From: Thermoflexales bacterium
Lineage (GTDB): Bacteria > Chloroflexota > Anaerolineae > J036 > Brachytrichaceae
NCBI GenBank assembly: GCA_038213625.1
Contig: JBBQST010000001.1
Location: 1 to 50,734 of the forward strand
DNA: 50,734 bases
Reading direction: 5' to 3'
The position numbers were made by a program, and so were the translations under genes. Shown in pieces: positions 5,486-46,964 of this stretch (within the stretch, counting starts at the first letter, position 1; each line of letters opens with the position of its first letter). Under the pieces are notes generated by a model. The model had not been told where the DNA came from. It did not search any database and saw nothing but the letters and a program-made list of their open reading frames with translations.

Positions 5486-5530
5486 TTGACCGGTATTGAC
5501 CGGTATTGACCGGTATTGAGTGAATTGACC
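5486..5530. repeat. 10-bp tandem repeat TTGACCGGTA x3 plus two degenerate units
   Basis: ttgaccggta occurs at 5486-5495, 5496-5505 and 5506-5515, followed by ttgagtgaa and ttgacc. The array lies between the stop of 5530..6213(-) and the start of the 5430 gene. Confidence 0.85.
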
Positions 5531-6213: not shown

Positions 6214-6385
6214 GTGAATACCTCCTGATGTCCGAAAACCAATATACGTGTGATCAAGCCTGAACCGGCTTGCAGGTAAGTTGGCGGCTGGCTGCTGGCA
6301 GTTAGCCGCTAGCAGCCAGCCGCCAATCCCGCCATCCACTTCCTTCCCTATTGCTAATAAACGGGTGAACGGTAAGATTTGCGGC

Positions 6386-7795: not shown

Positions 7796-7909
7796 AGCGG
7801 AGAGCGATGAGCTGGGAGCTTAGAGCATGAGCGGAGGTCGCCACCGTCTTGATTCAACTCTTTGCTCCTCGCTCACAGCTCACAGCTCTGTGCTCATCGC
7901 TCTCCGCTC
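7795..7909. repeat. heptamer-periodic long inverted repeat filling a convergent intergenic gap (bidirectional terminator-like)
   Basis: Left arm gagcggagagcgatgagc (7795..7812) is the exact reverse complement of gctcatcgctctccgctc (7892..7909). The left half is GAGCNNN x6 and the right half NNNGCTC x7. The arms overlap the stop codons of the hydantoinase gene and queA. Confidence 0.85.
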
Positions 7910-8993
7910 AGGCTATGAGCATCGCATCGCCGAAGGAATAGAAACGATAGCGCTGGCGGATGGCTTCGGCGTAGGCGCGTTGCATCGGCTCCAGACCCAT
8001 GAAGGCACCGACCAGGGCCAGCAATGTGGAGCGCGGCAGGTGAAAGTTGGTGATGAGCGCGTCGCAAACTTTGAACTGAAATCCCGGCGTAATATAAATA
8101 TGGGTGAAGCCGCTCCAACCGGCTTCGGGCTGGCCCTGCTCGCCCCAGGTTTCCAGCACCCGCAGGCTGGTGGTGCCAACGGCGATGATGCGGCCACCTC
8201 TGGCGTGAGTCTCACGAATGGCCAGCGCCGTTTGCGGCGTAATCTCGCACCACTCGGTGTGAATCTGATGCGCTTCAACCTCGGCCTCGTCAATGGGCTT
8301 GAACGTATCCAGGCCGACGTGCAAGGTGACAAAGGCGACGCCGACACCGTTGGATTGCAGTTCGCTCAGCAAGCGCGAGGTGAAGTGCAGGCCGGCGGTG
8401 GGTGCGGCGGCCGAGCCGGCCATACGCGCATAGACGGTCTGGTAGCGCGCTGGGTTTTGTAGCTTTTCGTGGATGTAGGGTGGCAACGGCATCTCGCCGA
8501 TGGCACTTAAGTAGGGTTCCACAGGTTCGCTGAAACGAACGATGCAGGTGGGGCCGTCGCGCCGCTCGATCACATCTGCTGTGAATGGGTGATCTGTGAC
8601 GCCATCAAACAGCACCTGCTCCACCCGCCGGCCGCCGACCAAACATTCCCAATCGGTCGGGTTGAGCTTGCGCAACAACAGCACCTCAGCTTTGCCACCG
8701 CTGGGCTTGTGGCCGGCGAGGCGGGCATTGAGCACACTGGTGTCGTTGGCCACCAATAGATCACCAGGCCGGAGCAACTGGGCGATATCTAAAAACTGCC
8801 TATGCGATATTTGGCCCGAGGATCGCTCAATCCCCATCAGCCGCGAGCTGTCGCGCGGCTCGACAGGGGTTTGGGCGATCAGGTCAGATGGAAGGTCATA
8901 CGCGAGTTCCGATGTTTGCACAGTGCCTGGATTGTAGCGAACTGGTTTCGATTGGGTGGATTCGCGAAAAGGGGCAATGGACGGCTCGGCCAC
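7908..8993 (-). CDS. queA: S-adenosylmethionine:tRNA ribosyltransferase-isomerase
   Basis: ORF track 7908..8993(-). QueA motifs ...YDLPSDLIAQTPVEPRDSSRLM... and ...TLHVGLDTFKP.... The listed start is a GTG. A shorter start (GTG at 8921, VQTSELAYDLP) is equally possible. Confidence 0.9.
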   Translation of the reverse strand: MAEPSIAPFRESTQSKPVRYNPGTVQTSELAYDLPSDLIAQTPVEPRDSSRLMGIERSSGQISHRQFLDIAQLLRPGDLLVANDTSVLNARLAGHKPSGGKAEVLLLRKLNPTDWECLVGGRRVEQVLFDGVTDHPFTADVIERRDGPTCIVRFSEPVEPYLSAIGEMPLPPYIHEKLQNPARYQTVYARMAGSAAAPTAGLHFTSRLLSELQSNGVGVAFVTLHVGLDTFKPIDEAEVEAHQIHTEWCEITPQTALAIRETHARGGRIIAVGTTSLRVLETWGEQGQPEAGWSGFTHIYITPGFQFKVCDALITNFHLPRSTLLALVGAFMGLEPMQRAYAEAIRQRYRFYSFGDAMLIA

Positions 8994-23414: not shown

Positions 23415-23458
23415 TGAGAACCATTTGAGAACCATTTGAGAACCATTTGAGAGCCATT
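23415..23458. repeat. 11-bp tandem repeat TGAGAACCATT x3 plus one variant, immediately upstream of a start codon
   Basis: tgagaaccatt occurs at 23415-25, 23426-36 and 23437-47, and tgagagccatt at 23448-58. The ATG of the next gene is at 23473. Confidence 0.85.
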
Positions 23459-26524: not shown

Positions 26525-28081
26525 TTAGCCAGCCAATGCCTTCTCAACCACCTCGACCGTCACCTCTTTCAAGTTATTCTTCACCGCATATTGTTCCACG
26601 CCGGTGCGCAATTCGCGGGTGGCGCTGATGCGGCTGAGCCACGGAATGCCTTCGAGGTGCGTCTCCATTTGCTCACGCGCCTCGTCCTTCCACACCAGGT
26701 TGCGCGCCGCAGTCAGCGTGCTGCTCATATCCTTCAGGCCACCGGCATCTTTCACATTGTCAAACGGCAGGAAATTGAACACAACCTCATAGAAGCGATT
26801 CACCATTTCCTGAACGATAAAGATGATGCCGCTATAGCCCATAAACGGCGTGCCCAAGGCGCGGCGCACGGTTGCACCTGGGAATGCCGCAGGGATAAAG
26901 AACGTCGCTTTTGCACCCGCTTCGGTCAAATAGATCTTTTCATTCAAGCTGCCGAACACGAAGCCGGGTTGCTTCTTGTGCAACGTCTCGCGGATGGCGA
27001 TGTTGTCCATGGTGCCGGGCTGATAGGGCCGCGCCGCCGCAAACTGCAACTTCATGCCCAGCTCATCGGCCAGCAATTTCACCAACCCATCGGCATACGT
27101 CTTGCCGGCCACCACCGCAAATTCTGTTGTAGCAAACCAATCGCCCTGTGGGCCGCGCCACAAATCCCACAACGCCGCCAATGTCGTTTTCTTTTCTTTG
27201 GCGATAAAGGCATCGGCCTGCTCCCGCGTGCCCAAAATATTGCCGATTTGTTGAATGAATTCGGTGGTCTCGCGAATGCCCATCGGCGCAAACAAATACG
27301 GCTTGCCCAATTCAACAGCCAGCGCCTCGCCAAACTCGTGGTACATCACGATGTTCAACGCACTATCGGCCAGCCGAGGCGTATCGCTCAGCAACGACTC
27401 AGTCGGATAGACCAGGTTCACTGTGCCGCCGGCCCCTTCGATCAGCCGCTTGATCTCGTGCAAATCTGAGGGCGAGTTGAAGCAGCCCATGGTGGGGCCG
27501 ATGATGTTGACGAGACCGTTGCTGGCGGCTGGCGGCTGGCGGCTGGCGGCTGGATTTTTGCGATACTTCGCGCCAATTGCACCAAATTGTTTCCACAACC
27601 ACACCAGCACGCGCTCGCGGCCTTCGTATTCATCGCCTTCCAGCGATTTACTCCAGAAGAACGGCGTCGGCTGCTCCATGCGGCCCAGCCAGTCGCCATG
27701 ATCACTCGAGATCATCTCGCTCTCCGCCGTGCTGACCACGATGACTTCGCGATCTGGATGAATCTGGCGCAACGCATCGACGGTGCGGCGAACAGCGCCG
27801 GCCGTGCCCGTCATCGTCACCTCTTGCTCGCGCATCACGCTCGGTGTCAGATTCTCGATGTGCGGGATGGCATCGGTGTAATCGGGGACTGCGGTGCCGA
27901 CCAGGTTGAAGCAGCCAATCGGCGCATCGCAAATCACATGCGCATCCGGCATGCAACAAATCGTCCACACCGCCGCCCAATAGCCGCTGGTGCTTTCCAA
28001 ATCGCGTATCAATTGAATCGGCGCATGCTTCTTGCCGCCGGTCGAGACAAACGTTTCTGTATTGAGCTGTGTATCAGACAT
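26525..28081 (-). CDS. bchZ: chlorophyllide a reductase subunit Z
   Basis: ORF track. The N-terminus ...GYWAAVWTICCMPDAHVICDAPIGCFNLVGTAVPDYTDAIP... has the BchZ pattern (GGYWGAVY...V.DGPVGC...YTDA.P) rather than the BchB pattern. Same operon as bchX/bchY. Confidence 0.9.
   Translation of the reverse strand: MSDTQLNTETFVSTGGKKHAPIQLIRDLESTSGYWAAVWTICCMPDAHVICDAPIGCFNLVGTAVPDYTDAIPHIENLTPSVMREQEVTMTGTAGAVRRTVDALRQIHPDREVIVVSTAESEMISSDHGDWLGRMEQPTPFFWSKSLEGDEYEGRERVLVWLWKQFGAIGAKYRKNPAASRQPPAASNGLVNIIGPTMGCFNSPSDLHEIKRLIEGAGGTVNLVYPTESLLSDTPRLADSALNIVMYHEFGEALAVELGKPYLFAPMGIRETTEFIQQIGNILGTREQADAFIAKEKKTTLAALWDLWRGPQGDWFATTEFAVVAGKTYADGLVKLLADELGMKLQFAAARPYQPGTMDNIAIRETLHKKQPGFVFGSLNEKIYLTEAGAKATFFIPAAFPGATVRRALGTPFMGYSGIIFIVQEMVNRFYEVVFNFLPFDNVKDAGGLKDMSSTLTAARNLVWKDEAREQMETHLEGIPWLSRISATRELRTGVEQYAVKNNLKEVTVEVVEKALAG
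27522..27553. repeat. in-frame heptamer array CTGGCGG x4.5 inside bchZ
   Basis: ctggcgg occurs at 27522-28, 29-35, 36-42 and 43-49, then ctgg. It is translated on the minus strand as ...NPAASRQPPAASN.... Confidence 0.85.
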
Positions 28082-30372: not shown

Positions 30373-30471
30373 GGGGAGTAGCGAGTAATCAGTAGTCAGT
30401 AGTTAGTAGTCAGAAATGAACTTAGTCGAGTTTTCATCTGACTACTGACTACTGACTACTCGCTACTCCCC
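30373..30471. repeat. heptamer-periodic (NAGTAGT) hairpin element between bchX and bchY
   Basis: Left arm ggggagtagcgagtaatcagtagtcagtagttagtagtcaga (30373..30414), right arm tctgactactgactactgactactcgctactcccc (30437..30471). The fold is an 11-bp outer stem, a 7-nt bulge, and a 24-bp inner stem with one T:G. Confidence 0.85.
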
Positions 30472-30474
30472 GCT

Positions 30475-31641
30475 CTACTCGTAGTACGGCGCAGCCGTAA
30501 ATCGCAAATCCGCCATCTTGAAGGTTTCGCCGCTATGAGACAGGGCCGACAAAATCGCGATCTTGCTGTCCATCTCGTCGCGCGGGTCGCCGAAGATGGC
30601 GTCCCAGCCGGTATCTGTTGTGACGACGACGCCGCGCTCCGGCTCTTCGACCAATCGCGTCACCGTCAGGCCCATCTCTTGCATGATGCGGCGCACGACC
30701 AGTTTGCTGTCTTCGCTGTACTCGGCGCTATTCAAATCGATACTCTGTGCGGCCAGCGTGGTGTGGCCCATCAGATCGTCCATGCTGGCACCGATCGGCA
30801 AGCCTGGCGGCTCTGATGCGCCAAAAACATCGAGGAATTCGTCGTACTCCAGCGGCGTCACTTTGTCGGGCACGGTGTAATCGCGGCGGTGAATCTTGTT
30901 CACAAATTGATCGAACAACGAATCCATCTCCGGCAAATCGAACAGGAGTTTGCAGCGGTCGCTCAGCGCGCGCGCGGTTGGATTAAACGGCACCTTCACC
31001 AAAATCGGCAGGCCCACCCGCTCGGCAAATTTCTCGGCCACGCCGCTGCCGTCATCGCGGTTCAACACCATGCCAATCACGCGGGTCTTGCCGCCCATGC
31101 TCTGGAAGTAGCTAACGGCGCGGGCGATGTTATTGGCTGCATACAAACTCATCCGGTCGTGGCTGGCGATGATCACGATCTCCTCGGCCAGGCTCTTGGC
31201 AATCGGGGTGGCAAAGCCGCCGCACACCACATCGCCCAGGAAATCCATGACGATGTAATCGAGCGCCCAATCGGCCATGCCGCGCTCTTCGAGCAGACCA
31301 AAGCCAAAGCTGATGCCGCGCCCGCCGCAGCCGCGGCCCACTTCGGGGCCGCCCAATTCGGCACCATACACGCGGGCCTTGTTATCCAGCTCGGTCTTAA
31401 AAATCAAATGCTCAACGCCGAGTTCCTTCTCGCGGTTGGCGTCCTTCATCATGCGCCATTGGTCGCCGATGGTGGGCAGACCACGGCCATCAAACAACGC
31501 ATTACACGAATCGTGTTTAGGGTCACACCCCAATTGCAACACGCGCAATCCCTTCAGCGCCATCTTCGCGCTCAGGTTCGCCGTGAAGAAACTTTTGCCA
31601 ATGCCGCCTTTTCCATAAATTGCAATCATTCTTGGGGACAT
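30475..31641 (-). CDS. bchX: chlorophyllide a reductase iron protein subunit X
   Basis: ORF track 30475..31662(-). I moved the start to ATG 31641 (MSPRMIAIYGKGGIGKS...), 6 nt after GGAGG. NifH/BchL/BchX P-loop, ...GGPEVGRGCGGRG..., ...DFLGDVVCGGF.... Called X because it sits beside bchY/bchZ. Confidence 0.9.
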   Translation of the reverse strand: MSPRMIAIYGKGGIGKSFFTANLSAKMALKGLRVLQLGCDPKHDSCNALFDGRGLPTIGDQWRMMKDANREKELGVEHLIFKTELDNKARVYGAELGGPEVGRGCGGRGISFGFGLLEERGMADWALDYIVMDFLGDVVCGGFATPIAKSLAEEIVIIASHDRMSLYAANNIARAVSYFQSMGGKTRVIGMVLNRDDGSGVAEKFAERVGLPILVKVPFNPTARALSDRCKLLFDLPEMDSLFDQFVNKIHRRDYTVPDKVTPLEYDEFLDVFGASEPPGLPIGASMDDLMGHTTLAAQSIDLNSAEYSEDSKLVVRRIMQEMGLTVTRLVEEPERGVVVTTDTGWDAIFGDPRDEMDSKIAILSALSHSGETFKMADLRFTAAPYYE

Positions 31642-31690: not shown

Positions 31691-32671
31691 TTATTGAGCC
31701 GGCCATTCCAACACCATCTTCAAGCAATTCACATCGTTAAATGCCACATCGAACGCCTGTGACGCATCCTCGGCCTTCATACGATGTGTCACCAGATCAT
31801 CGACATTGAGCGCCTTGTCGCGTATCAGGTCGCGTGCAGCGGCCAGATCGCCCGGGGCCCACTGCATGCTGCTGACCAATGTCAATTCTTTTAGAAATAC
31901 GGGTTGATAGGGCAGGTTGATGCAGTCGTAATAACCCAACAACACGACCCGGCCGCCGCGCCCCATGCGCATCAACCACGGCGAGATCGCCTCCATCTTG
32001 CCAGTCGCATCAATCAGCACATCCACACCTTTTATTGCAGCAAATTCAGCTCCAGAAAGCTGCAAATCCGATGCTGTATTCAGTATGGCATCGGCCTTGG
32101 AATAATGCAAACGCGCGTCTTCTTTATCCGTCACAATGAGCTTGAGCGCCTTGTTTCCACGTGCTTTTACGATGCGCGCCGCAAGCTGGCCCACGATGCC
32201 CTGACCAAGTATGACCACCGTTTTTGGCGCGTCCGACGCCACCAGCCCAGCCTGATTCACGCCATGCAGCGCCGTCGCCGCCAATGCCAGCAACACGCCT
32301 TGTTCCGGCGTCAACGTCTGCAAATCAGTCAGGTGCGTTTTCGGCGCAACGATGTATTCGCTCTGTCCGCCAAATGCTGGATTCACGCCGAGGAAGCCGT
32401 AATTGCCGCCGACATAGACTCGCTTGCCCAACCATTCATCTGCGTTGTCACCGGCCTCAATCACCTCACCCACCGTCTCATATCCCGGCACCACCGGAAA
32501 TTGCAACATTGGGTGCGGCATCACCCCTTTCAACAACATGCGCTCGGTACCGGCGCTAATACTGGTCAACTGTGTCCTAATCAGCACATCATCTGCGCCG
32601 ATGGGTTTCAGCTCAACATCCTGCATCTCAATCGTGTTCGCCGCAGGAATCACAATAGCCTTTGTTCTCAT
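31691..32671 (-). CDS. bchC: 3-hydroxyethyl bacteriochlorophyllide a dehydrogenase (MDR family)
   Basis: ORF track. ...LTSISAGTERMLLKGVMPHPMLQFPVVPGYETVGEVIEAG... matches the BchC pattern (SGISTGTE..L..GRMP.FPG..YPLVPGYE.VG). Confidence 0.85.
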   Translation of the reverse strand: MRTKAIVIPAANTIEMQDVELKPIGADDVLIRTQLTSISAGTERMLLKGVMPHPMLQFPVVPGYETVGEVIEAGDNADEWLGKRVYVGGNYGFLGVNPAFGGQSEYIVAPKTHLTDLQTLTPEQGVLLALAATALHGVNQAGLVASDAPKTVVILGQGIVGQLAARIVKARGNKALKLIVTDKEDARLHYSKADAILNTASDLQLSGAEFAAIKGVDVLIDATGKMEAISPWLMRMGRGGRVVLLGYYDCINLPYQPVFLKELTLVSSMQWAPGDLAAARDLIRDKALNVDDLVTHRMKAEDASQAFDVAFNDVNCLKMVLEWPAQ

Positions 32672-32823
32672 AAAAACAATTTGTCAAATTCAATGCACGA
32701 CTAATCGGATTTTTAGACAGAATGAACAGAATTTAACAGAATGAAGACACTTCCCCATTCTGTTAAATTCTGTCTAAAATCCCCGACCGATCAATCAATT
32801 ACACAAAGAATTGGATGGTTAAG

Positions 32824-32991: not shown

Positions 32992-33451
32992 GACCGTCCT
33001 TCCTTTTCGAGCGCCTGGCCATACACCTGCTCATACACCTCGGCATACGGCTTCAACGCTTCGTAAACGTGATGGGGCACGACACGCCCTTCCATTTTGG
33101 GGAACTTCTCGCGCACGTAATTCAAATTGCGAATGAGCTTGAACTCAATCGCCCAACGCGCAAATTCCAGGCCGCGTGGGCCGGTGGTGCGCTGCATGAA
33201 GGCGATGAATTTGCGCAGCAGCCACGGCGGCATCGTCTGTGGCTTTGCGCCAGAATGGCGGCTGCGCCAGAATGGCGGCTGCGCCACATATTCGGCGACA
33301 AACACGGCTTGTTACCGCGGCTCTCGCGCACTTCATCGGCAGTGCGTGCATCACTGCAAATTTTGGGCCGGCCCTTCAGCCGCTCCTCAGTGTTCAGCAA
33401 GGTCAGTGCGGTGATACCCTTGGTCGGCGCATCCAATTCAATCTCGTTCAT
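32988..33451 (-). pseudogene. unknown-function ORF split by a 17-bp tandem duplication (frames 33122..33451 and 32988..33305)
   Basis: The two ORF-track frames differ by 2 nt. Removing one 17-nt copy joins them in frame into ~148 aa: MNEIELDAPTKG...NMWRSRHSGAKPQTMPPWLLRKFIAFMQRTTGPRGLEF...EKEGRS. Confidence 0.55.
33247..33280. repeat. perfect 17-bp tandem duplication (plus 6 nt of a third copy)
   Basis: gcgccagaatggcggct occurs at 33247-33263 and 33264-33280, followed by gcgcca at 33281-33286. Confidence 0.95.
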
Positions 33452-33914: not shown

Positions 33915-36900
33915 TCAAACCCGCACACCTTCCAACCGATCTTCCAAATCGGCATACAACGCTTTCAGTTGATCCACCGTGTCGTCATCGGCCTTCCACA
34001 ACCCGCGCCCACTCGCCTCCAGCAGCCGGCCCACGATGTTGCGCATGGCCTGGGGATTCGCCTTGGTCAGCCGCTCGCGCATCTCGGCATCCAGCGCAAA
34101 CGTTTGCGCCGCATCCTTGTAAATCCAGTCATCCACGCTGTCGCTCACGGCATCCCAGCCCAGCATGTAGGTAAAGCGGTTGCTAATCTCGGCCGCGCCG
34201 CTGTGGCCGTGCGAGAGCATGCCCTCGTACCACTTGGGGTTCAGCAGCTTGGTGCGGTACTCCACCCGCAACACTTTGTCCACATCCTCAATGCGTGTCT
34301 CGGCTGTGTAGGTCTCGATGTAGTTCAACTTCACCGTGCCACCCGTGCGCTTCTTCGCTGCCATCTGCAACGCGCCGCTGGACGAAAAGTAATGGTCAAT
34401 GTCGGTGACGCCAAACTCCACGCTGTCGATCTCCTGCACCACCCGGCCCACCGTCCCCAACAACTTGCTCAGCATGGGACCGGCCGCTGCACCCGCACGT
34501 CCACCACCGTAGGCGTAGCCGATGCGCCGCACAAACGTGCTGTCCAGATCGTCGGCGCTCTCCCACGCGCTGTCGTCGACCATGTCATCGACATAGGTGC
34601 CATACTGGCCTGGCTGCTGGGTGAACATGCGCGCCGTGGCCGTCTCGAATGCGACGCCACCGCGCATCGCCTCATCCACATGCTTGCGAATGAAGTTCAT
34701 CTCGCACGGCTCATCGGCCCCCGCCGCGCTGCGCACCAGCTTGTCCAAAAAGTCCATCGTGATCTCGAAGGTGTCTCGAAAAATAGGGCTCAACTGCATC
34801 AACACGTCCACGCGCGGCCGCTTCAATTCACCCAGTGGAATCAGCGCATAGTGGCTGATCTTGCCCTGCCCGTCGTAGGCCGGCTTCGCGCCGATCAACC
34901 CCAACACCGTGCCCACGGCCTCGCCCTTGGTCTTGATCGTGTCCAAGCCCCACAGCACTTGCGCAATGGTTTCAGGATACGCGCCAGTCTCCTCCACATG
35001 CTTCTGCAAAATCGCCTCGGCAATGTGCGCGCCCTTGGTGTAGGCCAGTTCGGCCGGAATGCGCCACGGATCAATCGCGTGAATGTTGCGCCCCGTCGGC
35101 AACACGCTCAAGCCATCGCGAATCAAATCGCCGCCGGCATTCGGCAAAATGTAGCCGCCGCTCAGGCCGCGCAACAAGCCATTGATCTCGCCGCGGTTGT
35201 CGCTCAACATCTGCGCCATCTGCCGGCCCTGCCGCACCATCTCATCCAGCGCGTGCAAATCCTCAGATGAACCATGTCCACCAAACGCCTTCTCAACCGC
35301 CGCCGCCAGACTCAAATCCCCAAACACGGCTCCTTCCACAAACTCGCGCGCATGTTCCTCAATCGCCTCGCGCATCCGAATCGCCGCCGCATCACCCTTG
35401 CGCGCCAGTGCGGCCAACTCGGTATAAGACGACGGGAGATGGGGGACGGAAGACGAATCGCCGTCCCCCGTCTCTCGTCTCCCGTCTCTCTCCCACACCG
35501 CCCTCGTCGCAATCGACGTCAGCGAATGCCCATTTCCCCGCGCCTTCATCGCCTCGGTCACCATCGTCATCTGGCTCTGCACCGGCGTCGCCTCGCCAAA
35601 CACATGCAAGGTGCCACTGATCAGCCGTTGCTCAAGGTCACGCAAATACGCATACAGCCGGCTCACATACACATCAAAATGTTCACCCTCGACCCGCGGG
35701 CAATCCGTATCCAGATTCGCCAACTCCACCTTCTTCAATATCGCCTCAGCCCGCGCATCGTCCCCATTTCTGCCTTCTGCCTTCTGCCTTTTGACTTCTC
35801 GATAATCCGCCACCATGTCCTTCAGCGCGATCAATTCTTTATACAAACCGGCTCGCATCATCGGCGGCACGTTGTGCGAGATGATCGTGGCATACCCGCG
35901 CCGCTTGGCAATGTTGGCTTCACTTGGGTTGTTCATCGGGTAGATGTAGAGATGCGGCACCTCGCCCACCATCGCATCGCTCCAGCAACTGCGCGTCACG
36001 CCCAGTTGCAAGCCCGGCATCCACTCCACGCTGCCGTGCATGCCCAGATGCACCAGCGCATCAGCCCCGAAGCAACGGCTGATCCAGCGATAGAACGCGG
36101 CATATTGGTGGTGCGGCGCGTTGTCCTTGTCGAACAGCAGCCGCATCGGGTCGCCCTGCACACCGATGCGCGGTTGCACGCCGATGTAAATATTGCCCAT
36201 GCGCAGGCCGCCCATAAACACGCGGTCGTTGCCCAACGGCGCAACATCCCCAGGGAATGCACCCCAGCGCTCCTCGATGCGTTCGCGCTCGCGCACGCTC
36301 AACACATCCGCAAATTGGGCCCGTGTCATCACATGCTCGCTCTTGTAGGCCGAGGGATGGCCGGTATCGGTGGTGTTCTCGATCAGCTCCAACAGCGCTT
36401 CCGGCGTCTCCGGCAAGCTGCCCACGTTGTAGCCCGCTGCCTGCATCTCGCGCAAAATGTTGAGCAGGCTGCGCGGCACATCTAATAAGGCGGCCGTGCC
36501 TTTTTTGCCGTAGCCGGGTGGATAGTCATACAGCACAATCGCGACCTTCTTGTCGGCATTCGGCGTGTGTCGCAGCTCGGCCCAGCCTTTGGCCAACGTG
36601 GTCAGCCGCTTCAGCCGATCCGGCACCGTGGCGAACTTGCCGTTGTTGATCGCGCCGATGACCACGGGATTAATCGCGCCGTCCATCTCCGGCAACGAGA
36701 ACAATGTCGCGCTCTGCATCGGCCCCGCGCCGTTCTGCGCCCACGAGCGAAAGTCCTGCACAAACAGCGGCTGCGCCACGATATACGGCACATTTAACCC
36801 ACCCAGCACGTCTTCAACCACCTGTTTTTGCAGACCCGGCTTGGTGCTGCCCGCCGGCCCGCCCACAAACGCAAAGCCGATCATGCTCACCAGCACGTCA

Positions 36901-37865
36901 ATCGGCTCCTTGGAAATGAAGTCGCGCACCGCCACGTGGCCCTCGATGCCGGCCACAAACATCGGCAGCACCTCCATGCCCTCGGCCTCAAACGCCCGAA
37001 TCGCATCATCGATATAACTGCGCTCCTGAGCCAGATGCTTGCGAAAGAACATCAGGGCAACCCGGCGAGGCTGGTTACTGGCGGCTGGTTGCTGGCGGCT
37101 GGTGATTTGGACAACACCTGTCCCCGGCTTCCCTTTCTGCCTTTTGCCTTCTGCCTTCTGCCTTTCTCCATCCGCCTTCTGCCTTTGTTTCACCCATCCG
37201 TTGTAGCTCTTAATATCTCGAAAGAACGCCGGCGCATCGGGGTGATACACGCCCATCATCGGCATCTCCACCGCCGCCGGCACGTCTAGTTTCTTGCCAA
37301 AATATTCGTTCAAGATCAGCTTGAACATGCTCGTGATATTCTGCTGCAACGGCTGGTTCCAATACACATTCACCGTCATCCAGTTCTTAAAATCGCGCAT
37401 CTTGGCCGGCATAAAGCGCATGGCCGTTTGCATCACCTTCATCAGCTTGGTGTAGCCATAGAGTGCGTCCTCCTCGCGGCCCTTCACCAGCATCATCGCG
37501 ATCTTCTTCACCGGCTCGGGCATACCCGCCTTCTTGCCACTGTTCGCCACGACATAGTCGCCGACCTTGTTCAGGGCCATGATCTCGGGCATCGACTCAA
37601 ATGCAAAAATAGTCTTGGCGTGGGATTGCGCAATTTGCTCATGCAAAAACTCGGCCGCATCGTGCTGGTGCAACATCGATAAAAATACGCAATCGGCCTC
37701 GCGAATCTGCTGCCCCAACGTCGCATCCTTGCGATCCAGCTCCACATCAGTCCAGCGATTCACTTCGGCAACTTCAGACAGCTCCTGCTGCACCTGCTTC
37801 CACACGCCGTGGTTAAACTGCTCCATCCCCACAATCGCGACAATCTTTGGTTTCATATTCTTCAT
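33915..37865 (-). CDS. bchH: magnesium chelatase large (H) subunit
   Basis: ORF track, 1316 aa. CobN/Mg-chelatase H architecture throughout (...HLGMHGSVEWMPG..., ...YVDDMVDDSAWE...). Adjacent to bchD/bchI. Confidence 0.95.
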   Translation of the reverse strand: MKNMKPKIVAIVGMEQFNHGVWKQVQQELSEVAEVNRWTDVELDRKDATLGQQIREADCVFLSMLHQHDAAEFLHEQIAQSHAKTIFAFESMPEIMALNKVGDYVVANSGKKAGMPEPVKKIAMMLVKGREEDALYGYTKLMKVMQTAMRFMPAKMRDFKNWMTVNVYWNQPLQQNITSMFKLILNEYFGKKLDVPAAVEMPMMGVYHPDAPAFFRDIKSYNGWVKQRQKADGERQKAEGKRQKGKPGTGVVQITSRQQPAASNQPRRVALMFFRKHLAQERSYIDDAIRAFEAEGMEVLPMFVAGIEGHVAVRDFISKEPIDVLVSMIGFAFVGGPAGSTKPGLQKQVVEDVLGGLNVPYIVAQPLFVQDFRSWAQNGAGPMQSATLFSLPEMDGAINPVVIGAINNGKFATVPDRLKRLTTLAKGWAELRHTPNADKKVAIVLYDYPPGYGKKGTAALLDVPRSLLNILREMQAAGYNVGSLPETPEALLELIENTTDTGHPSAYKSEHVMTRAQFADVLSVRERERIEERWGAFPGDVAPLGNDRVFMGGLRMGNIYIGVQPRIGVQGDPMRLLFDKDNAPHHQYAAFYRWISRCFGADALVHLGMHGSVEWMPGLQLGVTRSCWSDAMVGEVPHLYIYPMNNPSEANIAKRRGYATIISHNVPPMMRAGLYKELIALKDMVADYREVKRQKAEGRNGDDARAEAILKKVELANLDTDCPRVEGEHFDVYVSRLYAYLRDLEQRLISGTLHVFGEATPVQSQMTMVTEAMKARGNGHSLTSIATRAVWERDGRRETGDGDSSSVPHLPSSYTELAALARKGDAAAIRMREAIEEHAREFVEGAVFGDLSLAAAVEKAFGGHGSSEDLHALDEMVRQGRQMAQMLSDNRGEINGLLRGLSGGYILPNAGGDLIRDGLSVLPTGRNIHAIDPWRIPAELAYTKGAHIAEAILQKHVEETGAYPETIAQVLWGLDTIKTKGEAVGTVLGLIGAKPAYDGQGKISHYALIPLGELKRPRVDVLMQLSPIFRDTFEITMDFLDKLVRSAAGADEPCEMNFIRKHVDEAMRGGVAFETATARMFTQQPGQYGTYVDDMVDDSAWESADDLDSTFVRRIGYAYGGGRAGAAAGPMLSKLLGTVGRVVQEIDSVEFGVTDIDHYFSSSGALQMAAKKRTGGTVKLNYIETYTAETRIEDVDKVLRVEYRTKLLNPKWYEGMLSHGHSGAAEISNRFTYMLGWDAVSDSVDDWIYKDAAQTFALDAEMRERLTKANPQAMRNIVGRLLEASGRGLWKADDDTVDQLKALYADLEDRLEGVRV
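35431..35479. repeat. in-frame hairpin insertion inside bchH (GACGRRA-type heptamers)
   Basis: A 19-bp stem (35431..35449 pairs with 35461..35479; 17 Watson-Crick pairs and 2 G:T) with an 11-nt loop. Translated on the minus strand as ...ERDGRRETGDGDSSSVPHLPSS.... Confidence 0.75.
35768..35795. repeat. in-frame heptamer array TTCTGCC x3 plus one variant inside bchH
   Basis: ttctgcc occurs at 35768-74, 75-81 and 82-88, then ttttgac. Translated as ...EVKRQKAEGRNGD.... Confidence 0.8.
37071..37183. repeat. compound in-frame repeat insertion in the N-terminal part of bchH
   Basis: ctggttactggcgg/ctggttgctggcgg/ctggtg (37071..37104) and seven consecutive NNNNGCC heptamers, mostly ttctgcc (37135..37183). 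Translated as ...KQRQKADGERQKAEGKRQKGKPGTGVVQITSRQQPAASNQPRR.... Confidence 0.8.
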
Positions 37866-37926
37866 GCCTTGTTTTTAAGGTTTCTAAAGTGGGCAGGTTG
37901 TTAAAGTTTGCGACGCAGTCTCATCA

Positions 37927-37980
37927 ACCTTAAAAACCTTAAAAACTTTACAAACTTTACAAACCTTTTAACCTCTTTAA
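37927..37980. repeat. AT-rich 9-bp tandem array in the bchD-bchH spacer
   Basis: Units are accttaaaa x2, actttacaa x2, accttttaa and cctctttaa (37927..37980). Complementary copies tttttaaggt (37872..37881) and ttgttaaagtttg (~37898..37910) lie upstream. Confidence 0.75.
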
Positions 37981-37983
37981 CCT

Positions 37984-39903
37984 TCAGCCCGCTCCGTCAA
38001 TCGCCGCCACAATCTGCCCGGCTTTGGCATTCGGCAAATACACATATCGCCCGTCCAGCCACTTCGCCAGCCTCGGCGCTTCGCCGCGCGAGAGGTAGTT
38101 CGCCTGGGTGTCAATCACCACCGCGCCCACCCCATCGGCCGCAATCAACGCGCTCAGTTGCTTCAACTCATCCTCAATCTGCTGCTTGGCCGTTGGCTGC
38201 TGGCCGCCAGCCGCTAGCCGCTCTTTGCCCCCCGCTCCTCGCTCTCCGCTGATTCCCACATTCCCCCGCCCATCCGTCATCACAATCAAGGTCGTGTTGG
38301 GAATGCCCTTGCGGCGCGATTGCTGCGCCATGTCCCAGCCCAGCATCAGCGCACTCGCCAGCGGCGTGCCACCGCCAGTCGGCAACACATCCAGTTCGCG
38401 CTTGGCCTGCTCCACGCTCTGGCTCGGGGCCAGCAGCACCTGCGCCTGCTGCCCGCGAAACGACACCAGCGCCACCCGGTCGCGATGCACATACGCGTTC
38501 TGCAACAGCCTGGCCACCGCGCCCTTGGCCTGCCGCATCCGGTTCAACGCCATGCTGCCGCTCGCATCCACCACAAACACAAACAACGTGCCGGCCTTGT
38601 CTCGAAACTTCTTGACGCGAATATCTTCTTTGGTGATGAGGACGGAAGAGAGACGGGAGACGGAGGACGGAGGACGGTTCAGAGAAGGCGTCGGTCGTTC
38701 GTCTCCCGCCGTCTTCCGTCTCCCGTCCTCCGTCTCCCGCCTCATCTTCTGCCACGGCGCCGCCGCCAGCAACGTCGGCAACAACGCCAGCTTGTGGCCG
38801 CGCATCTCGCCCTGCACCGCTCGCACAAACTTGCCACGCTTGTCGTTGAGCTGAACCCCACGGCTACCACTCTTGCCGCGCCGCGAGGTAAATGGCAGAT
38901 TCAACACATCGCCCGGCAATGCCGCTTCCACCGCGCTCAGTAATAGCTCTTCAATTTGGGGTTGCGCTTCAGGCTGAGGCGGCTCCGGCGTGTCCTCGTC
39001 TTGTTGCTGCTGCTCTGGCTTGGGCTGTTGCTCTTGTTGCGGCGGGGGTTGATCGGGCTGCTGCTCCGGCTCAGGCAGTCGCGTCGCACGCGGCATCAGC
39101 ACCAGTTTGGCCGCAGCCTGCAAATCCTCGTCGTCCACGGCATCACGCCCACTCAGTGCGGCATGGGCCAGGGCCGCTTTGGCCGCAAATACATCGGCCC
39201 GGTTGCCCTCCACACCCAGACTCAGCGCCGCCTGCGCAATGCCTTCAAGCTGCTCATCGCTGATCGTGATGGATGACAACTGCTCGCGCGCAAATCCGAT
39301 CATGCCGCGCAGCATGGCCATCTCATCGGTCTCTTGCTCAAGCGAATTAAGTGGCGCTGCAATATTTCGCCGCACGACTTCGGCCCGCGCCTGCGTGTCG
39401 CCGTTCGACACAAACGGCACAATCAGGCCAATGCGATCCAGCAAGCCGCCGCGCACGTTGCCATCGTTGCTGTCGTAGGTGCCCATCAACATGAAGTGGG
39501 CCGCGTGCACGGCACTCAAGCCTTCGCGCTCGATCCGCACTTCGCCCCGGCTCATCGCATCCATCACCTGGGTCACCACTGCGTCATCCAACAAATTCAA
39601 GCCATCGACATTGAGCACGCCGCCATCGGCCTTGGCCAGCAAACCCTGCTCCACCACCCGCTGGCCCGTCGCCAGGGCCGCTTCAAGATTCAAGCCGCCG
39701 ATCAAGCGATCCTCAGTGATATTCAGCGGCAACTCCACAAACGGCGTGCCGTCAGGCAACAGGGCCGCAAAGGCCCGGGCCAGTGTGCTCTTGCCCGAGC
39801 CCACCGCCGCCGCCATGGCCACACCGCCCAGGCTCGGATCCACCGCAAGCAGCAATAGTGCTTGTTTTGCAGAGTCGAGGCCAACGATGTCAGACCAGTT
39901 CAT
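37984..39903 (-). CDS. bchD: magnesium chelatase D subunit
   Basis: ORF track. N-terminal AAA+-like half, acidic/Pro-Gln-rich linker (...EPEQQPDQPPPQQEQQPKPEQQQQDED...), C-terminal vWA domain with MIDAS motif VVDASGSM. Confidence 0.95.
   Translation of the reverse strand: MNWSDIVGLDSAKQALLLLAVDPSLGGVAMAAAVGSGKSTLARAFAALLPDGTPFVELPLNITEDRLIGGLNLEAALATGQRVVEQGLLAKADGGVLNVDGLNLLDDAVVTQVMDAMSRGEVRIEREGLSAVHAAHFMLMGTYDSNDGNVRGGLLDRIGLIVPFVSNGDTQARAEVVRRNIAAPLNSLEQETDEMAMLRGMIGFAREQLSSITISDEQLEGIAQAALSLGVEGNRADVFAAKAALAHAALSGRDAVDDEDLQAAAKLVLMPRATRLPEPEQQPDQPPPQQEQQPKPEQQQQDEDTPEPPQPEAQPQIEELLLSAVEAALPGDVLNLPFTSRRGKSGSRGVQLNDKRGKFVRAVQGEMRGHKLALLPTLLAAAPWQKMRRETEDGRRKTAGDERPTPSLNRPPSSVSRLSSVLITKEDIRVKKFRDKAGTLFVFVVDASGSMALNRMRQAKGAVARLLQNAYVHRDRVALVSFRGQQAQVLLAPSQSVEQAKRELDVLPTGGGTPLASALMLGWDMAQQSRRKGIPNTTLIVMTDGRGNVGISGERGAGGKERLAAGGQQPTAKQQIEDELKQLSALIAADGVGAVVIDTQANYLSRGEAPRLAKWLDGRYVYLPNAKAGQIVAAIDGAG
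38635..38746. repeat. in-frame imperfect inverted repeat of GGNNGAC heptamers inside bchD
   Basis: Left arm gatgaggacggaagagagacgggagacggaggacggaggacgg. Right arm ...gtcttccgtctcccgtcctccgtctcccgcctcatc. The outer 7 bp gatgagg/cctcatc are exact. Translated as ...RRETEDGRRKTAGDERPTPSLNRPPSSVSRLSSVL.... Confidence 0.7.
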
Positions 39904-39918
39904 ATGAATACCCAGGCA

Positions 39919-41025
39919 CTAGAGCGCACGCGCAACGCGCTCATCCGAATCCACAATCTCAAGCGGGTCGCGCCGCAGCCGATGCCGCAATGCCGCGGTC
40001 GCCATCACTTTCACATCGTCATACTTCACGTCGATGGGGCCGTGGGCGGCCTTGGATTGAAACGCCGCGTAGGCACAGGCGGCTCGCGTCACGGTCAGCT
40101 CGCCGCGATGCCCATCGATGCCGAGCTTCATACACAACTCGGCGGCACGCAGCAACACGTCGTCGGGCATCACCACCTCGTGCAAAATCTTTTGGGCGTG
40201 CACAATGCGTTTGCGCAATTGCTGTTGTTGCGGCTCCCACATCTGCATAAACGCGGCAGGGTTCTCGTCAAACGCACGCCGGCGCTTCACAATTTCCACG
40301 CGCTCCTGCACATTCGTAATCGTGGTGATGCGCGCGTGCAGGCCAAATCGATCCAGCAATTGCGGCCGCAACTCGCCCTCCTCAGGGTTGCCGCTGCCCA
40401 CCAAAACAAATCGGGCCGGATGTTTGATGCTGATGCCTTCGCGCTCCACCACATTCCAGCCACTGGCGGCCACGTCCAACAACACATCCACCAAATGGTC
40501 ATCCAGCAAGTTCACTTCATCGATGTAGAGAAAGCCGCGATTGGCCTGGGCCAGCAGGCCCGGCGCAAAGCGCTTCTCGCCCCTGGTTAGCGCGGCTTCA
40601 ATATCAATCGTGCCGCACACGCGATCCTCAGTCGCACCAAGCGGCAGATCAACCACGGGCACGGGGATCTTCTCCAGCTTCTGAGACGACGGACGACGGA
40701 CGATGGACGACCCATCTTGCCGTCGTCCGTCGTCTGTCGTCTGTCGTCTCTGCTTCTGATCCACGTCATCCACCGTCTCTCTGTTATAGACATCCCCTTC
40801 AATGCGCTTGATGGCCGGCAACACATCGGCCAACGCGCGCACGGTCGTGCTCTTGCCGGTGCCACGATGCCCCATCACCATGACCCCGCCAATGCGTGGG
40901 TCAATTACATTCAGCAGCAAACACAGTTTCATCTCCTCCTGACCGACGATGGCGGTGAAGGGAAACGAAGTATTCAATGCATTGAGCGCGTTCAGTTCGG
41001 CATGGGGAGTGCTATGAGTCGACAT
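39919..41025 (-). CDS. bchI: magnesium chelatase I (ATPase) subunit
   Basis: ORF track. ...FPFTAIVGQEEMKLCLLLNVIDPRIGGVMVMGHRGTGKST... (Walker A), ...GFLYIDEVNLLDDH... (Walker B), ...ARFVLVGSGNPEEGELRPQLLDRFG.... Confidence 0.95.
   Translation of the reverse strand: MSTHSTPHAELNALNALNTSFPFTAIVGQEEMKLCLLLNVIDPRIGGVMVMGHRGTGKSTTVRALADVLPAIKRIEGDVYNRETVDDVDQKQRRQTTDDGRRQDGSSIVRRPSSQKLEKIPVPVVDLPLGATEDRVCGTIDIEAALTRGEKRFAPGLLAQANRGFLYIDEVNLLDDHLVDVLLDVAASGWNVVEREGISIKHPARFVLVGSGNPEEGELRPQLLDRFGLHARITTITNVQERVEIVKRRRAFDENPAAFMQMWEPQQQQLRKRIVHAQKILHEVVMPDDVLLRAAELCMKLGIDGHRGELTVTRAACAYAAFQSKAAHGPIDVKYDDVKVMATAALRHRLRRDPLEIVDSDERVARAL
40684..40751. mobile_element. 68-nt palindromic (GACGACR heptamer) element inserted in frame in bchI, flanked by 7-bp direct repeats
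   Basis: Arms 40684..40711 and 40722..40749 pair at 28 of 28 positions (25 Watson-Crick, 3 G:T) with a 10-nt loop. gcttctg occurs at 40677..40683 and again at 40752..40758. 68 + 7 = 75 nt = 25 codons (...QRRQTTDDGRRQDGSSIVRRPSSQK...). Confidence 0.55.
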
Positions 41026-41509: not shown

Positions 41510-41597
41510 AGAGTATGAAGTAGTCAGTAGTCAGTAGTCAGTAAGCATTGCCGTGCCTGTCTTTACTGGCTACTGGCTACTGACTACTTCATACTCT
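41510..41597. repeat. heptamer-periodic (CAGTAGT) hairpin element between the pucC-like gene and bchF
   Basis: 41510..41544 pairs with 41563..41597 over 35 positions (33 Watson-Crick, 2 T:G). The loop is ~15-18 nt. The repeat unit is the same as in the 30373 element. Confidence 0.85.
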
Positions 41598-44975: not shown

Positions 44976-45329
44976 ACAGTCAATTTATGCTCTCATGTCA
45001 TGCTCTCATGGTCGAACAATCACTCCAGCAGGTTTCTGGATGGACAGGATGTACAAGTCCCTATTTTTTAACCTGCCACATTTGTCGGCTTCACACTGTA
45101 AGGGCGCTTACAGATCACACCGACTGTAAGCACTATCGTTAACGCCGTCCAGCGCGACGGTTGATCCAGGAACCGCGTTTATGCGGTTCCGATCTCCGTA
45201 GCACGCTCATCACACCGATTGGAACAGGCCCGCATCGGCCACAACACTTTTGTAAGAATTTGGCGGCAACATCATCGCGTGGGCAATCAGCCTGTGATGA
45301 AACGTCATATTCAGAGGAGTAAACAGATT

Positions 45330-46121
45330 ATGCAAATCAAGCAAACCCAAACGACTCGCCACGCAATATTCATCTACGCAAGTGTGGCCGCGCTGGCGCT
45401 GGCCGCCTGCAGCACAGCCGCACCCGCAGCCACGGCCACGGCTGTCCCCGCAGCCACCAATGCGCCCGCAGCCACCAACGCACCCGCACCAACGGCCGTG
45501 GTCGCAATGGCAGAACCCACTACCGATGCGATGGCCAAGCCCGCCGACAGCATGACCAGCACCGATGCCATGACAAAGACCGAGGCCATAGTGATGACTG
45601 AGGCGATGACTGAGGCAATGACATCGACCGAGGCCATGCAGGACAAGCCAGCCGAAGGCCAAGCGATGACCGACACAGCCCTGCGGCCGGCCTGGCAACA
45701 GGTTCAGCTTACAGATGCGCGCACGGGCAAGGCATTCACCCTGGCTGATTTTGCCGGCAAAACCGTCTATGTGGAACCCTTCGCCACCTGGTGCAGCAAC
45801 TGCCGCGCACAGTTGAACAATGTGCGCACGGCCAAGGGTCAGTTGGACGACCAACATGTATTTGTCGCGCTAAGCGTCGAGACCAACCTCACGACTGAGG
45901 ACATTGCCAAATATTCCGAAGCACAGGGGTTCGATTGGGTGTTTGCGGTGATGACGCCGGAATTGCTCAAGCAGCTCACCGATCAGTTCGGCCTTACCAT
46001 CGCCAACCCGCCCTCCACGCCGCACTTCATCATCCGGGCCGATGGCACCACCACGGACTTGTCCACTGGGATCAAGAGCGTCGAGGATCTCGTCGCCACC
46101 ATTCAGGCTGAACGCAAATAA
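45330..46121 (+). CDS. TlpA/ResA-like thioredoxin-fold lipoprotein with Met-rich N-terminal repeat region
   Basis: ORF track 45219..46121(+). I moved the start to ATG 45330 after GAGGAG. Lipobox ...ALALAAC, CxxC active site FATWCSNCR. Confidence 0.8.
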   Translation: MQIKQTQTTRHAIFIYASVAALALAACSTAAPAATATAVPAATNAPAATNAPAPTAVVAMAEPTTDAMAKPADSMTSTDAMTKTEAIVMTEAMTEAMTSTEAMQDKPAEGQAMTDTALRPAWQQVQLTDARTGKAFTLADFAGKTVYVEPFATWCSNCRAQLNNVRTAKGQLDDQHVFVALSVETNLTTEDIAKYSEAQGFDWVFAVMTPELLKQLTDQFGLTIANPPSTPHFIIRADGTTTDLSTGIKSVEDLVATIQAERK

Positions 46122-46808: not shown

Positions 46809-46920
46809 GTAACTACTCAGGCCTTTTGGACAGGATAAACAGGATTTACAAGATCGGGAGCAGATTTCCAACCTGTACATCTTGTAAATCCTGTCTCAAA
46901 ATCTGAGGCTGAGCAGTTAC
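46809..46920. mobile_element. 112-nt MITE-like element with 13-bp terminal inverted repeats and an 8-bp target-site duplication
   Basis: ctgatgct occurs at 46801..46808 and 46921..46928. TIRs gtaactactcagg (46809..46821) and gctgagcagttac (46908..46920) have 1 mismatch. The internal perfect 16-bp stem is acaggatttacaagat (46839..46854) / atcttgtaaatcctgt (46879..46894). Confidence 0.55.
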
Positions 46921-46964
46921 CTGATGCTTGCAAATAAAGCTGGTTGCCGCCAGATGATGACGAC

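Follow-up and report, generated by a model that had tools for sequence, protein, structure and literature searches.

A GACGACR heptamer hairpin within bchI of a Chloroflexota phototroph, read as one copy of a dispersed hairpin family

How does a 68-nt palindrome built of tandem heptamers come to lie, in frame, inside bchI, a gene for one of the three subunits of Mg-chelatase? The question is raised by a stretch of 50,734 nt from a Thermoflexales bacterium (contig JBBQST010000001.1, positions 1 to 50,734; hereafter the window), in which an earlier note on this DNA had interpreted the palindrome as an insertion resembling a miniature inverted-repeat transposable element (MITE), flanked by a 7-nt target-site duplication and retained by purifying selection. 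We consider it on balance probable that the palindrome in bchI represents a lineage-wide, dispersed family of heptamer hairpins and is tolerated in a variable loop of the protein. The family is best read as standing close to two known systems, the hairpin-forming doublets of repetitive extragenic palindromic sequences (REPs and REPINs) and the paired heptameric repeats, and its history is best explained if it spreads without a regular duplication, by a mechanism that we infer, and is then remodelled by slippage.

The palindrome itself is real. The hairpin occupies positions 40683-40750, with arms at 40683-40711 and 40722-40750 made of about four units each (GACGACR in one, YGTCGTC in the other) around a 10-nt loop at 40712-40721 (CCATCTTGCC). 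The arms are 29 nt long and 90% complementary across this spacer, with 26 Watson-Crick pairs and three exceptions, which on the plus strand are G:T, G:T and T:G; as the bchI mRNA corresponds to the minus strand, these three positions become A.C mismatches in the transcript. Both arms are period-7 arrays (GACGACG x3.9 and GTCGTCT x4.0), and the element holds six of the seven occurrences of GACGACRGACGA in the window (at most one mismatch allowed; 0.47 expected). Folded as the mRNA-sense strand it reaches -50.1 kcal/mol (z = -5.1), a stability equalled by 0 of 200 shuffles. The direct repeat that had been described around it is also present and is 8 rather than 7 nt long: GCTTCTGA is found at 40677-40684, where its final two nucleotides overlap the stem, and the same sequence returns at 40752-40759.

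The host open reading frame (ORF), on the minus strand at 39919-41025, encodes 368 aa without a break across the hairpin and is identified as BchI/ChlI (E = 8e-126 to ChlI 8osf). The element is translated as ...QKQRRQTTDDGRRQDGSSIVRRPSSQKLEK..., the peptide across the insert reads ...QTTDDGRRQDGSSIVRRPSSQK..., and the element plus one 7-nt copy of the repeat amounts, as had been calculated before, to 75 nt in frame. Compared with the closest relative, the gene is actually longer by 24 nt (368 versus 360 aa), because that relative has other sequence at the site. Alignment to solved ChlI/BchI sequences places the insert in the variable stretch preceding the (V/M)VDLPLGATEDRV block. An AlphaFold2 prediction for BchI from a 20-sequence alignment had a mean predicted local distance difference test score of 47.5 and was unusable, so the argument for a surface loop rests on the alignment with solved ChlI/BchI and on the variability of the loop.

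The arms of this hairpin recur far beyond bchI. A scan of metagenomes for the arm core arranged as a hairpin (GACGACGGACGAC-N8-38-GTCGTCCGTCGTC) returned GACGACR hairpins with an identical 13-nt arm core on at least 120 contigs, and many of these contigs come from the sample series that also gave the close relatives and match the window in GC content. A typical copy has three to four heptamers per arm and a loop of 6-13 nt, about 65 nt in all; an arm is not complementary to itself, and arms differ in length in steps of 7 nt. Throughout the 1.83 Mb of compared loci (numbered with L below, with P for proteins), 169 of 345 strong hairpins have arms of period 7, and every other period accounts for at most eight. 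Other units, namely AGTAGTC, GTTGCTG, AGATGTC and AATTGAG, recur on contigs with the GC content of the window. Loops are shared as well: at a similarity of at least 75% we found seven pairs of non-orthologous loci with a common loop, against 0.5 in shuffles (0 of 200 as high), and such loop subtypes common to unrelated loci indicate that the family is dispersed. The loop of the window copy, for instance, matches CGATCCTGCC in L100/L180, within an ORF of the aldehyde-dehydrogenase family, and the loop of a copy in another ORF, in L201. The hairpins also have a common polarity, the 5' arm being the G-rich one (G>C) in 53 of 61 period-7 hairpins once the family used for selection is removed (p = 3e-9). 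The polarity of a palindrome is the same on both strands, and this bias is therefore not an effect of transcription.

Beyond the clade, period-7 hairpins were seen near chlI/bchI in Nostocales, in metagenome-assembled genomes (MAGs) of Blastocatellia and Pyrinomonadaceae, and in Oscillochloris (L001-L080), at a density of 1.4 per 100 kb; for the window the corresponding figure is about 10.

Could the bchI hairpin have arisen where it stands, from the native loop, by heptamer slippage and template switching and with no movement between loci? There are indications of such local processes. Gains and losses of 7-nt units separate strains, and in many bacteria no long simple repeats are more abundant than heptanucleotide ones, for which polymerase slippage has been proposed as the cause (Mrazek and colleagues, as summarised in PMC4679880). 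The 5' arm of the hairpin in the bchI orthologue of L085 is made of native V-D-D codons (GTGGATGAC), which suggests local inverted copying, and just upstream of the window's hairpin GAGACGGTGGATGACG resembles the arm, with 81% complementarity to the far one. A purely local origin is nevertheless unlikely in our view, since the same heptamers, and even the same loops, are found at unrelated loci far above chance, and an identical arm core is carried by all those contigs; with the period-7 excess, the recurring units and loops leave the family as a whole beyond the reach of such an explanation. Furthermore, a full change of unit at 2% background divergence exceeds what slippage and ordinary point mutation would achieve, because other hairpins in the same 12 kb have changed by 0-3 bases.

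The classical MITE model starts from the opposite end. Here a transposase making a 7-8 bp staggered cut would have left GCTTCTG(A) on both sides, selection would have kept the insertion that was in frame, and the exact allele before insertion would have read ...GATCAGAAGCTGGAG.... An 8-nt repeat does directly flank the bchI copy, with a chance of about 0.003 per element, and an element of the same 68-nt GAGACGA...TCGTCTC build at L148 5631-5698 also has an 8-nt flanking repeat, the right copy of which lies about 10 nt away. Among 160 unique period-7 hairpins, with boundaries set by the palindrome, five have a flanking repeat of at least 8 nt, all of exactly 8 nt, where 0.55 are expected (p = 3e-4, in a post hoc comparison that includes the bchI copy). 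Many dispersed copies related by descent, another trait of MITEs, are likewise found here (the contigs and loop pairs given above), and so are terminal inverted repeats, albeit trivially, as the whole element is an inverted repeat and any palindrome would have them.

What speaks against the MITE model is that 155 of these 160 hairpins have no flanking repeat of even 7 nt; at that threshold the excess is not significant (5 versus 2.3, p = 0.09). Most copies thus lack a target-site duplication, and the duplication on which the earlier note had relied is not a trait of the family, an outcome that the note itself had named as refuting its reading. L180 and L201, whose loops are most like that of the bchI copy, lack it, and around the other eight elements checked in the window a search to 20 nt gave no flanking repeat of at least 5 nt; by eye, a 7-nt AGAAGAT can be seen on both sides of the hairpin in bchD, further out. 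The termini are not conserved beyond the heptamer, arm length varies by whole heptamers, and neither a related autonomous element nor an insertion sequence sharing these termini was seen in the roughly 1.8 Mb examined. Finally, the closest relative has a different hairpin at the bchI site, not an empty site with a single GCTTCTG. We therefore regard insertion as a classical MITE as improbable. Of the interpretation in the earlier note, the palindrome, its frame, its recent appearance and its dispersed family stand, while the hallmark duplication, the empty site and the specificity for photosynthesis genes do not.

The comparison with that relative is informative in its own right. The closest BchI sequence, P0002, comes from L081-L083, contigs syntenic with the window that derive from the samples JGI 3300009083 and 3300032420 and ENA ERZ27246970. 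Across about 12 kb, 100-nt windows have a median identity of 98% to L081. Identity in bchI is 93% at the nucleotide level, and the GACGACR element is absent there. The BLAST alignment is interrupted at two places only, 40675-40766 in bchI and 38626-38748 in bchD. The first interruption is a 92-nt segment on the minus strand for which L081/L082 have 68 nt of unrelated sequence, and it lies at the edge of a divergent patch (about 40531-40860). The sequence found there instead is a decayed TTTTGAC/GTCAAAA hairpin, common to the more distant L084, with folding energies of -24 kcal/mol (z = -1.5) in L081/L082 and -17.5 kcal/mol (z = -0.1) in L084. At the second interruption L081/L082 have a well-paired GAATTGA/GAATGAA hairpin in place of the one in the window. 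In the other clade members the bchI site folds as yet other, unrelated hairpins, those of L085, L086 (GACGGAA), L087 (GGAGATT, -42.5 kcal/mol) and L209 (CGAAAAT), so that some hairpin is present in six of six clade orthologue loci whose DNA was examined. At the protein level, the loops of P0005, P0009, P0012, P0016 and others resemble a translated CAAAATC-type arm (...SKIxNxKSKIEK).

The bchI site is a permanent home for changing hairpins. An orthologue with a single GCTTCTG and no element, which the earlier note had proposed to look for, was not found among the clade orthologues examined, and the simple empty-site comparison fails because relatives hold other hairpins at the site. A scan of a genome collection returned no close relative, the best BchI match being 70%. 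In Chlorobi, cyanobacteria and Chloroflexaceae, all outside the clade, the native loop at this position is conserved and shows no excess structure.

A true filled/empty pair does exist for a second, tiny element nested in one of the hairpins. When the bchI orthologues of L208 (68-979) and L087 (125-1153) are compared, a 24-nt in-frame insertion, CCCTTCGACAAGCTCAGGACGCGG, is present in L208 and absent in L087; it interrupts the 3' arm of the GGAGATT hairpin and has no flanking duplication.

While their sites stay fixed, the hairpins are exchanged at a much higher rate than the sequence around them, and they change in two ways: the slow mode is slippage with point change, the fast mode is replacement of the whole hairpin. 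The slow mode can be followed at several places in the window. The intergenic hairpin at 41510-41597 differs from its counterpart in L081 by an indel of one heptamer (7 nt) and by unit substitutions, and in L084 it is made of AGATTTC/AGATGTC units while the outer stem is retained. At 37069-37186 strains differ by 14 nt in copy number. The bchH hairpin (35431-35494) is the same in L081/L082 except for one substitution, and in L084, at 80-84% identity, it is short and degenerate. Transition hypermutation was considered as a cause of the unit change in bchD and was dropped, as it fits bchD in part and bchI not at all.

Whether the fast mode took place in the window's own lineage is a separate matter. 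The bchI loop, with its hairpin, could have been imported by short-patch homologous recombination from a distant relative carrying a GACGACR hairpin, in which case there was no insertion or replacement in the window's lineage; such an event would complement the preferred explanation and does not exclude it. Identity to L081 falls to 62-88% along the divergent patch (150-250 nt), the bchI hairpin sits at its edge, and the drop, running from about 40860 to 40531, reaches well past the hairpin on the downstream side. Two comparable patches that contain no hairpin, at 39231-39430 and 31933-32482, have 81-91% identity to L081 against the 98% background and look like mosaic recombination between strains. 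The position of the hairpin at a patch edge, taken with these hairpin-free patches, means that import may explain the strain difference. Moreover, the window's RETVDD matches the distant orthologues P0011 and P0069 and not L081/L084, which read RETRDG and RETLKD. In bchD, however, divergence from L081 is confined to the hairpin itself, the 120 best BchI homologues included no donor allele with this hairpin, and the origin of the hairpin would still have to be explained. We rate import as possible, and as the more serious of the alternatives, without thinking it probable.

The constancy of the site might also suggest that an RNA or DNA stem-loop is selected as such here and in bchD, acting in translational pausing, in mRNA processing or stability or as a binding site for a protein, with pairing maintained and sequence free to vary. 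This would fit the presence of hairpins of unrelated sequence at one position in all six clade loci, and intergenic copies fill operon gaps immediately downstream of stop codons, a common place for stem-loops that act on mRNA. Yet the hairpins of L081/L082 and L084 have decayed, the three mismatches of the bchI stem can pair as G:T on the antisense strand but are A.C in the mRNA, and the same hairpins are found in many unrelated genes as well as between genes. A scan of the whole window with Rfam at gathering thresholds reported one tRNA (2578-2651) and no match at the hairpins, and the orthologues outside the clade are unstructured at this position. A selected function for the stem-loop is accordingly very unlikely in our estimation.

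Related hairpins had been reported in bchD (38650-38743) and bchH (35431-35494) and are confirmed, so that all three Mg-chelatase subunit genes carry one. The association with photosynthesis genes is not specific, though. Domains recognised by Pfam on both sides of a hairpin include MetH, tRNA-synt_1, UvrA, ABC-F, SHMT, a transketolase-like domain and a DUF512 radical-SAM protein, and the class I tRNA synthetase (tRNA-synt_1) has two hairpins. Within same-lineage contigs, 21 hairpins lie in long ORFs and encode ...TTDDGRRTT...SSVVRRPSS.... In 42% of cases the frame around a hairpin is open for 70 codons or more in each direction, against 59% of random positions. GACGACR arrays are free of stops in every frame, and AGTAGTC units, which contain TAG, occupy only intergenic positions in the window, a pattern that indicates selection acting as a filter. 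Being stop-free and encoding a hydrophilic peptide (TTDDGRR...VVRRPSS), GACGACR copies can survive where their length keeps the frame and the loop is tolerant; in BchI the tolerant loop would be the variable stretch that follows the Walker A helix and precedes the PVPVVDLPLG block.

A protein search with the idealised hairpin peptide returned almost solely short hypothetical ORFs (40-80 aa) lying over hairpins. The sequences P0246-P0336 include many 'hypothetical proteins' of 40-80 aa that are translated heptamer hairpins, for example from Chloroflexia MAGs.

How might such a family be generated? Copies would arise through a process that works at replication forks or breaks, on DNA that is single-stranded or folded into a hairpin, with a logic resembling that of REPINs and of IS200/IS605-type elements and a preference for places that already form a hairpin; cut-and-paste of the DDE type, with a fixed duplication as in MITEs, would not be involved. 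Later slippage and template switching from arm to arm would keep the arms repetitive and complementary, and selection would merely filter the outcome, no function for the host being required. A bolder alternative, to which we give little credence, is that the hairpins are no copies of a mobile element at all but products of a repair or end-extension activity, in which a few G-rich heptamers are added to both 3' ends of a break, often one arising at an existing hairpin, and the ends are then joined. If true, this would account for the G-rich-first polarity on both strands, the size of about four units and the unrelated short loops, as well as for the usual absence of a duplication and the way in which hairpins of different unit succeed each other at exactly the same site, and it would amount to a new bacterial route of repeat making with templated heptamer synthesis at its core.

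Several points weigh against a dispersed family that spreads without regular duplication. The sharing of loops rests on short loops of 8-13 nt, and metagenome contigs cannot be assigned to one genome, which means that copy numbers per genome cannot be derived. The excess of exact 8-nt flanking repeats implies that an insertion route making duplications may exist for a minority of copies, and recombination import, not replacement in place, may be behind the strain difference in bchI. No mobilising enzyme was identified: the candidate transposase that the earlier note had proposed to look for is not among the approximately 40 ORFs of the window, and the single Y1 transposase found, on the same-lineage contig L131, has the appearance of an ordinary IS200. 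That gene (L131 743-1177; PF01797, E = 1e-43) is IS200-like with end hairpins of its own and lies about 130 nt downstream of a heptamer hairpin of the GTTGCTG type (L131 ~521-612).

Turning to the window as a whole, it contains eight strong hairpins, with none in five shuffles, and five of the eight have period-7 arms; repeat finders add further heptamer arrays that are weaker or one-armed. The heptamer hairpins, at least seven in number, have a common architecture and differing units, with at least six unit families in 50 kb. In bchD (minus strand) the hairpin region at 38626-38748 has core arms at 38650-38677 and 38716-38743 of GAGACGG/GAGGACG units and lies in frame directly before the VWA domain. 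The bchH gene, also on the minus strand, carries three features: the hairpin at 35431-35494, of GACGGGA-type units and in frame; paired arrays at 37069-37186, which on the coding strand read (GGCAGAA)n followed by (CCAGCCG/CCAGCAA)n and are weakly complementary; and a one-armed array, (GGCAGAA)4.6 on the coding strand, at 35768-35799. Two intergenic hairpins are of the AGTAGTC type, one filling the gap between bchF and pucC (41510-41597) and one filling that between the BchN-like and BchL-like genes (30373-30475). A hairpin of GAGCGRW/GCTCACA units lies between the convergent amidohydrolase and queA genes (7795-7920), a short one of GGCGGCT/GGCTGCT units is found at 6281-6326, and a perfect one-armed array, (GCTGGCG)4.7, is located within the BchB-like ORF (27521-27553).

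The window also holds repeats of other periods. Tandem repeats lie at 23415-23458 (an 11-mer x4), 5486-5519 (a 10-mer x3.4) and 33246-33286 (a 17-mer x2.4), and repeats of 18 and 12 nt occupy 45447-45622 inside the ORF at 45210-45857. Intergenic inverted arrays of 9-10-nt units (AACCTTAAA; ACAGAATKA) are present at 37871-37984 and 32712-32778, and both are polymorphic with respect to L081/L082, through an indel of one 9-nt unit and a replaced centre. A second dispersed hairpin repeat, not built of heptamers, is seen at 46809-46921 (about 113 nt; arms 46824-46850 and 46874-46900), which is 95.6% identical to L131 3384-3496 on a contig otherwise unrelated to the window.

In terms of gene content, the window is a photosynthesis gene cluster with pucC, pufC, pufM, pufL, crtB, bchG and bchP, as well as BchB-, BchN- and BchL-like genes and a bchC-like alcohol dehydrogenase gene, followed by bchH, bchD, bchI, bchF and pucC. 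The threonyl-tRNA synthetase encoded beside the cluster has its nearest named relatives in Chloroflexota and Candidatus Limnocylindrales, at 82-84%. A phototroph with a type II reaction centre in that part of the Chloroflexota may itself merit attention.

We believe that the observation is of wider interest for several reasons. An uncultured phototrophic lineage of Chloroflexota tolerates 65-nt palindromes, with folding energies of about -50 kcal/mol, in frame in many essential genes, among them the three Mg-chelatase subunit genes, MetH, a class I tRNA synthetase, UvrA and SHMT. This joins two separate fields, that of heptanucleotide repeats, whose excess in bacteria is unexplained, and that of palindromes inside proteins, as in the Rickettsia palindromic elements (RPEs) and intragenic REPs. 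On a practical matter, hairpin inserts of this kind break alignments, create spurious short 'hypothetical proteins' and mark surface loops that tolerate insertion. Furthermore, the G-first polarity and the four-unit size offer testable clues to the generating mechanism.

Several systems known from other bacteria resemble these elements in part. Heptanucleotide short tandemly repeated repetitive sequences are reportedly found in Nostocales (Mazel et al. 1990), a group in which period-7 hairpins were also seen among the loci compared here, and RPEs have reportedly been described from Rickettsia (Ogata et al. 2000). The small dispersed repeats of Nostoc (Elhai et al. 2008) are said to measure 21-27 nt, to make no duplications and to be nested in hairpin and heptamer-repeat contexts; the 24-nt insert of L208 looks similar to these, whereas the 68-nt heptamer hairpin does not fit. 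The earlier note knew of no comparable case in photosynthesis genes. As far as novelty is concerned, inverted heptamer arrays and palindromic repeats in ORFs have already been described (PMC4692102, PMC3733652, PMC10969869), while the combination was not found: the literature that we searched contains no description of multi-family heptamer hairpins in essential genes or of their turnover at the same site.

Among the heptameric repeats, the GGGAATC repeats of Xanthomonas are close in organisation. About four units are preferred, often in convergent pairs and mostly between genes (Rehm et al. 2015, PMC4692102), and positions are mostly conserved between close species while lengths vary, with the G-rich array coming first (PMC4692102). 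The present elements share the tandem 7-nt units, about four per array, the dispersal through the genome and the two convergent arrays that form a stem-loop with the G-rich one first. They differ in the number of units, for Xanthomonas has essentially one unit, with 7-11% of repeats touching ORFs, whereas here there are many units and about 40% lie in long ORFs; a single predominant unit with a largely intergenic distribution is thus not what we observe. A G-quadruplex has been proposed for the Xanthomonas repeats and cannot be formed by GACGACR, and complete replacement of the unit at a fixed site between close strains is seen here, unlike in Xanthomonas.

REPs and REPINs are hairpin repeats without duplication that are sometimes intragenic (Bertels & Rainey 2011, PMC3116915; Di Nocera et al. 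2013, PMC3733652); a genome may have several families, mostly located after coding regions, and many carry a GTAG or CGTC tag (PMC3116915, PMC3733652). In a REPIN an inverted doublet forms a hairpin of 60-110 nt, and the two arms here likewise make one long hairpin with a variable spacer and normally no target-site duplication. As for the tag, CGTC occurs in GTCGTCY and GTAG in AGTAGTC, but in every unit and not as an end tag, and GTTGCTG and AATTGAG have neither. The single REP is a short imperfect palindrome in its own right, with a fixed sequence, whereas the arms here are tandem heptamer arrays that vary by whole units. A cognate REP-associated tyrosine transposase was not found in the window, and the Y1_Tnp of L131, near the GTTGCTG hairpin, has IS200-like end hairpins of its own.

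MITEs are similarly small, non-coding, multi-copy inverted-repeat elements that can make in-frame fusions; their terminal inverted repeats are tied to a parent insertion sequence and their duplication has a fixed length (PMC10969869), neither of which characterises the family described here. RPEs are the classic in-frame palindromes (reviewed in PMC10969869). Like them, the present elements lie in frame in many unrelated and often essential genes, with the encoded peptide at tolerant surface sites. RPEs are, however, about 100-150 bp long, with a conserved consensus and some ten families, and are restricted to Rickettsia, whereas the elements described here are heptamer arrays of about 65 nt and are found in environmental bacteria that include, besides others, a Chloroflexota lineage. 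Taken together, these elements combine traits of heptameric repeats, of REPs/REPINs and of RPEs.

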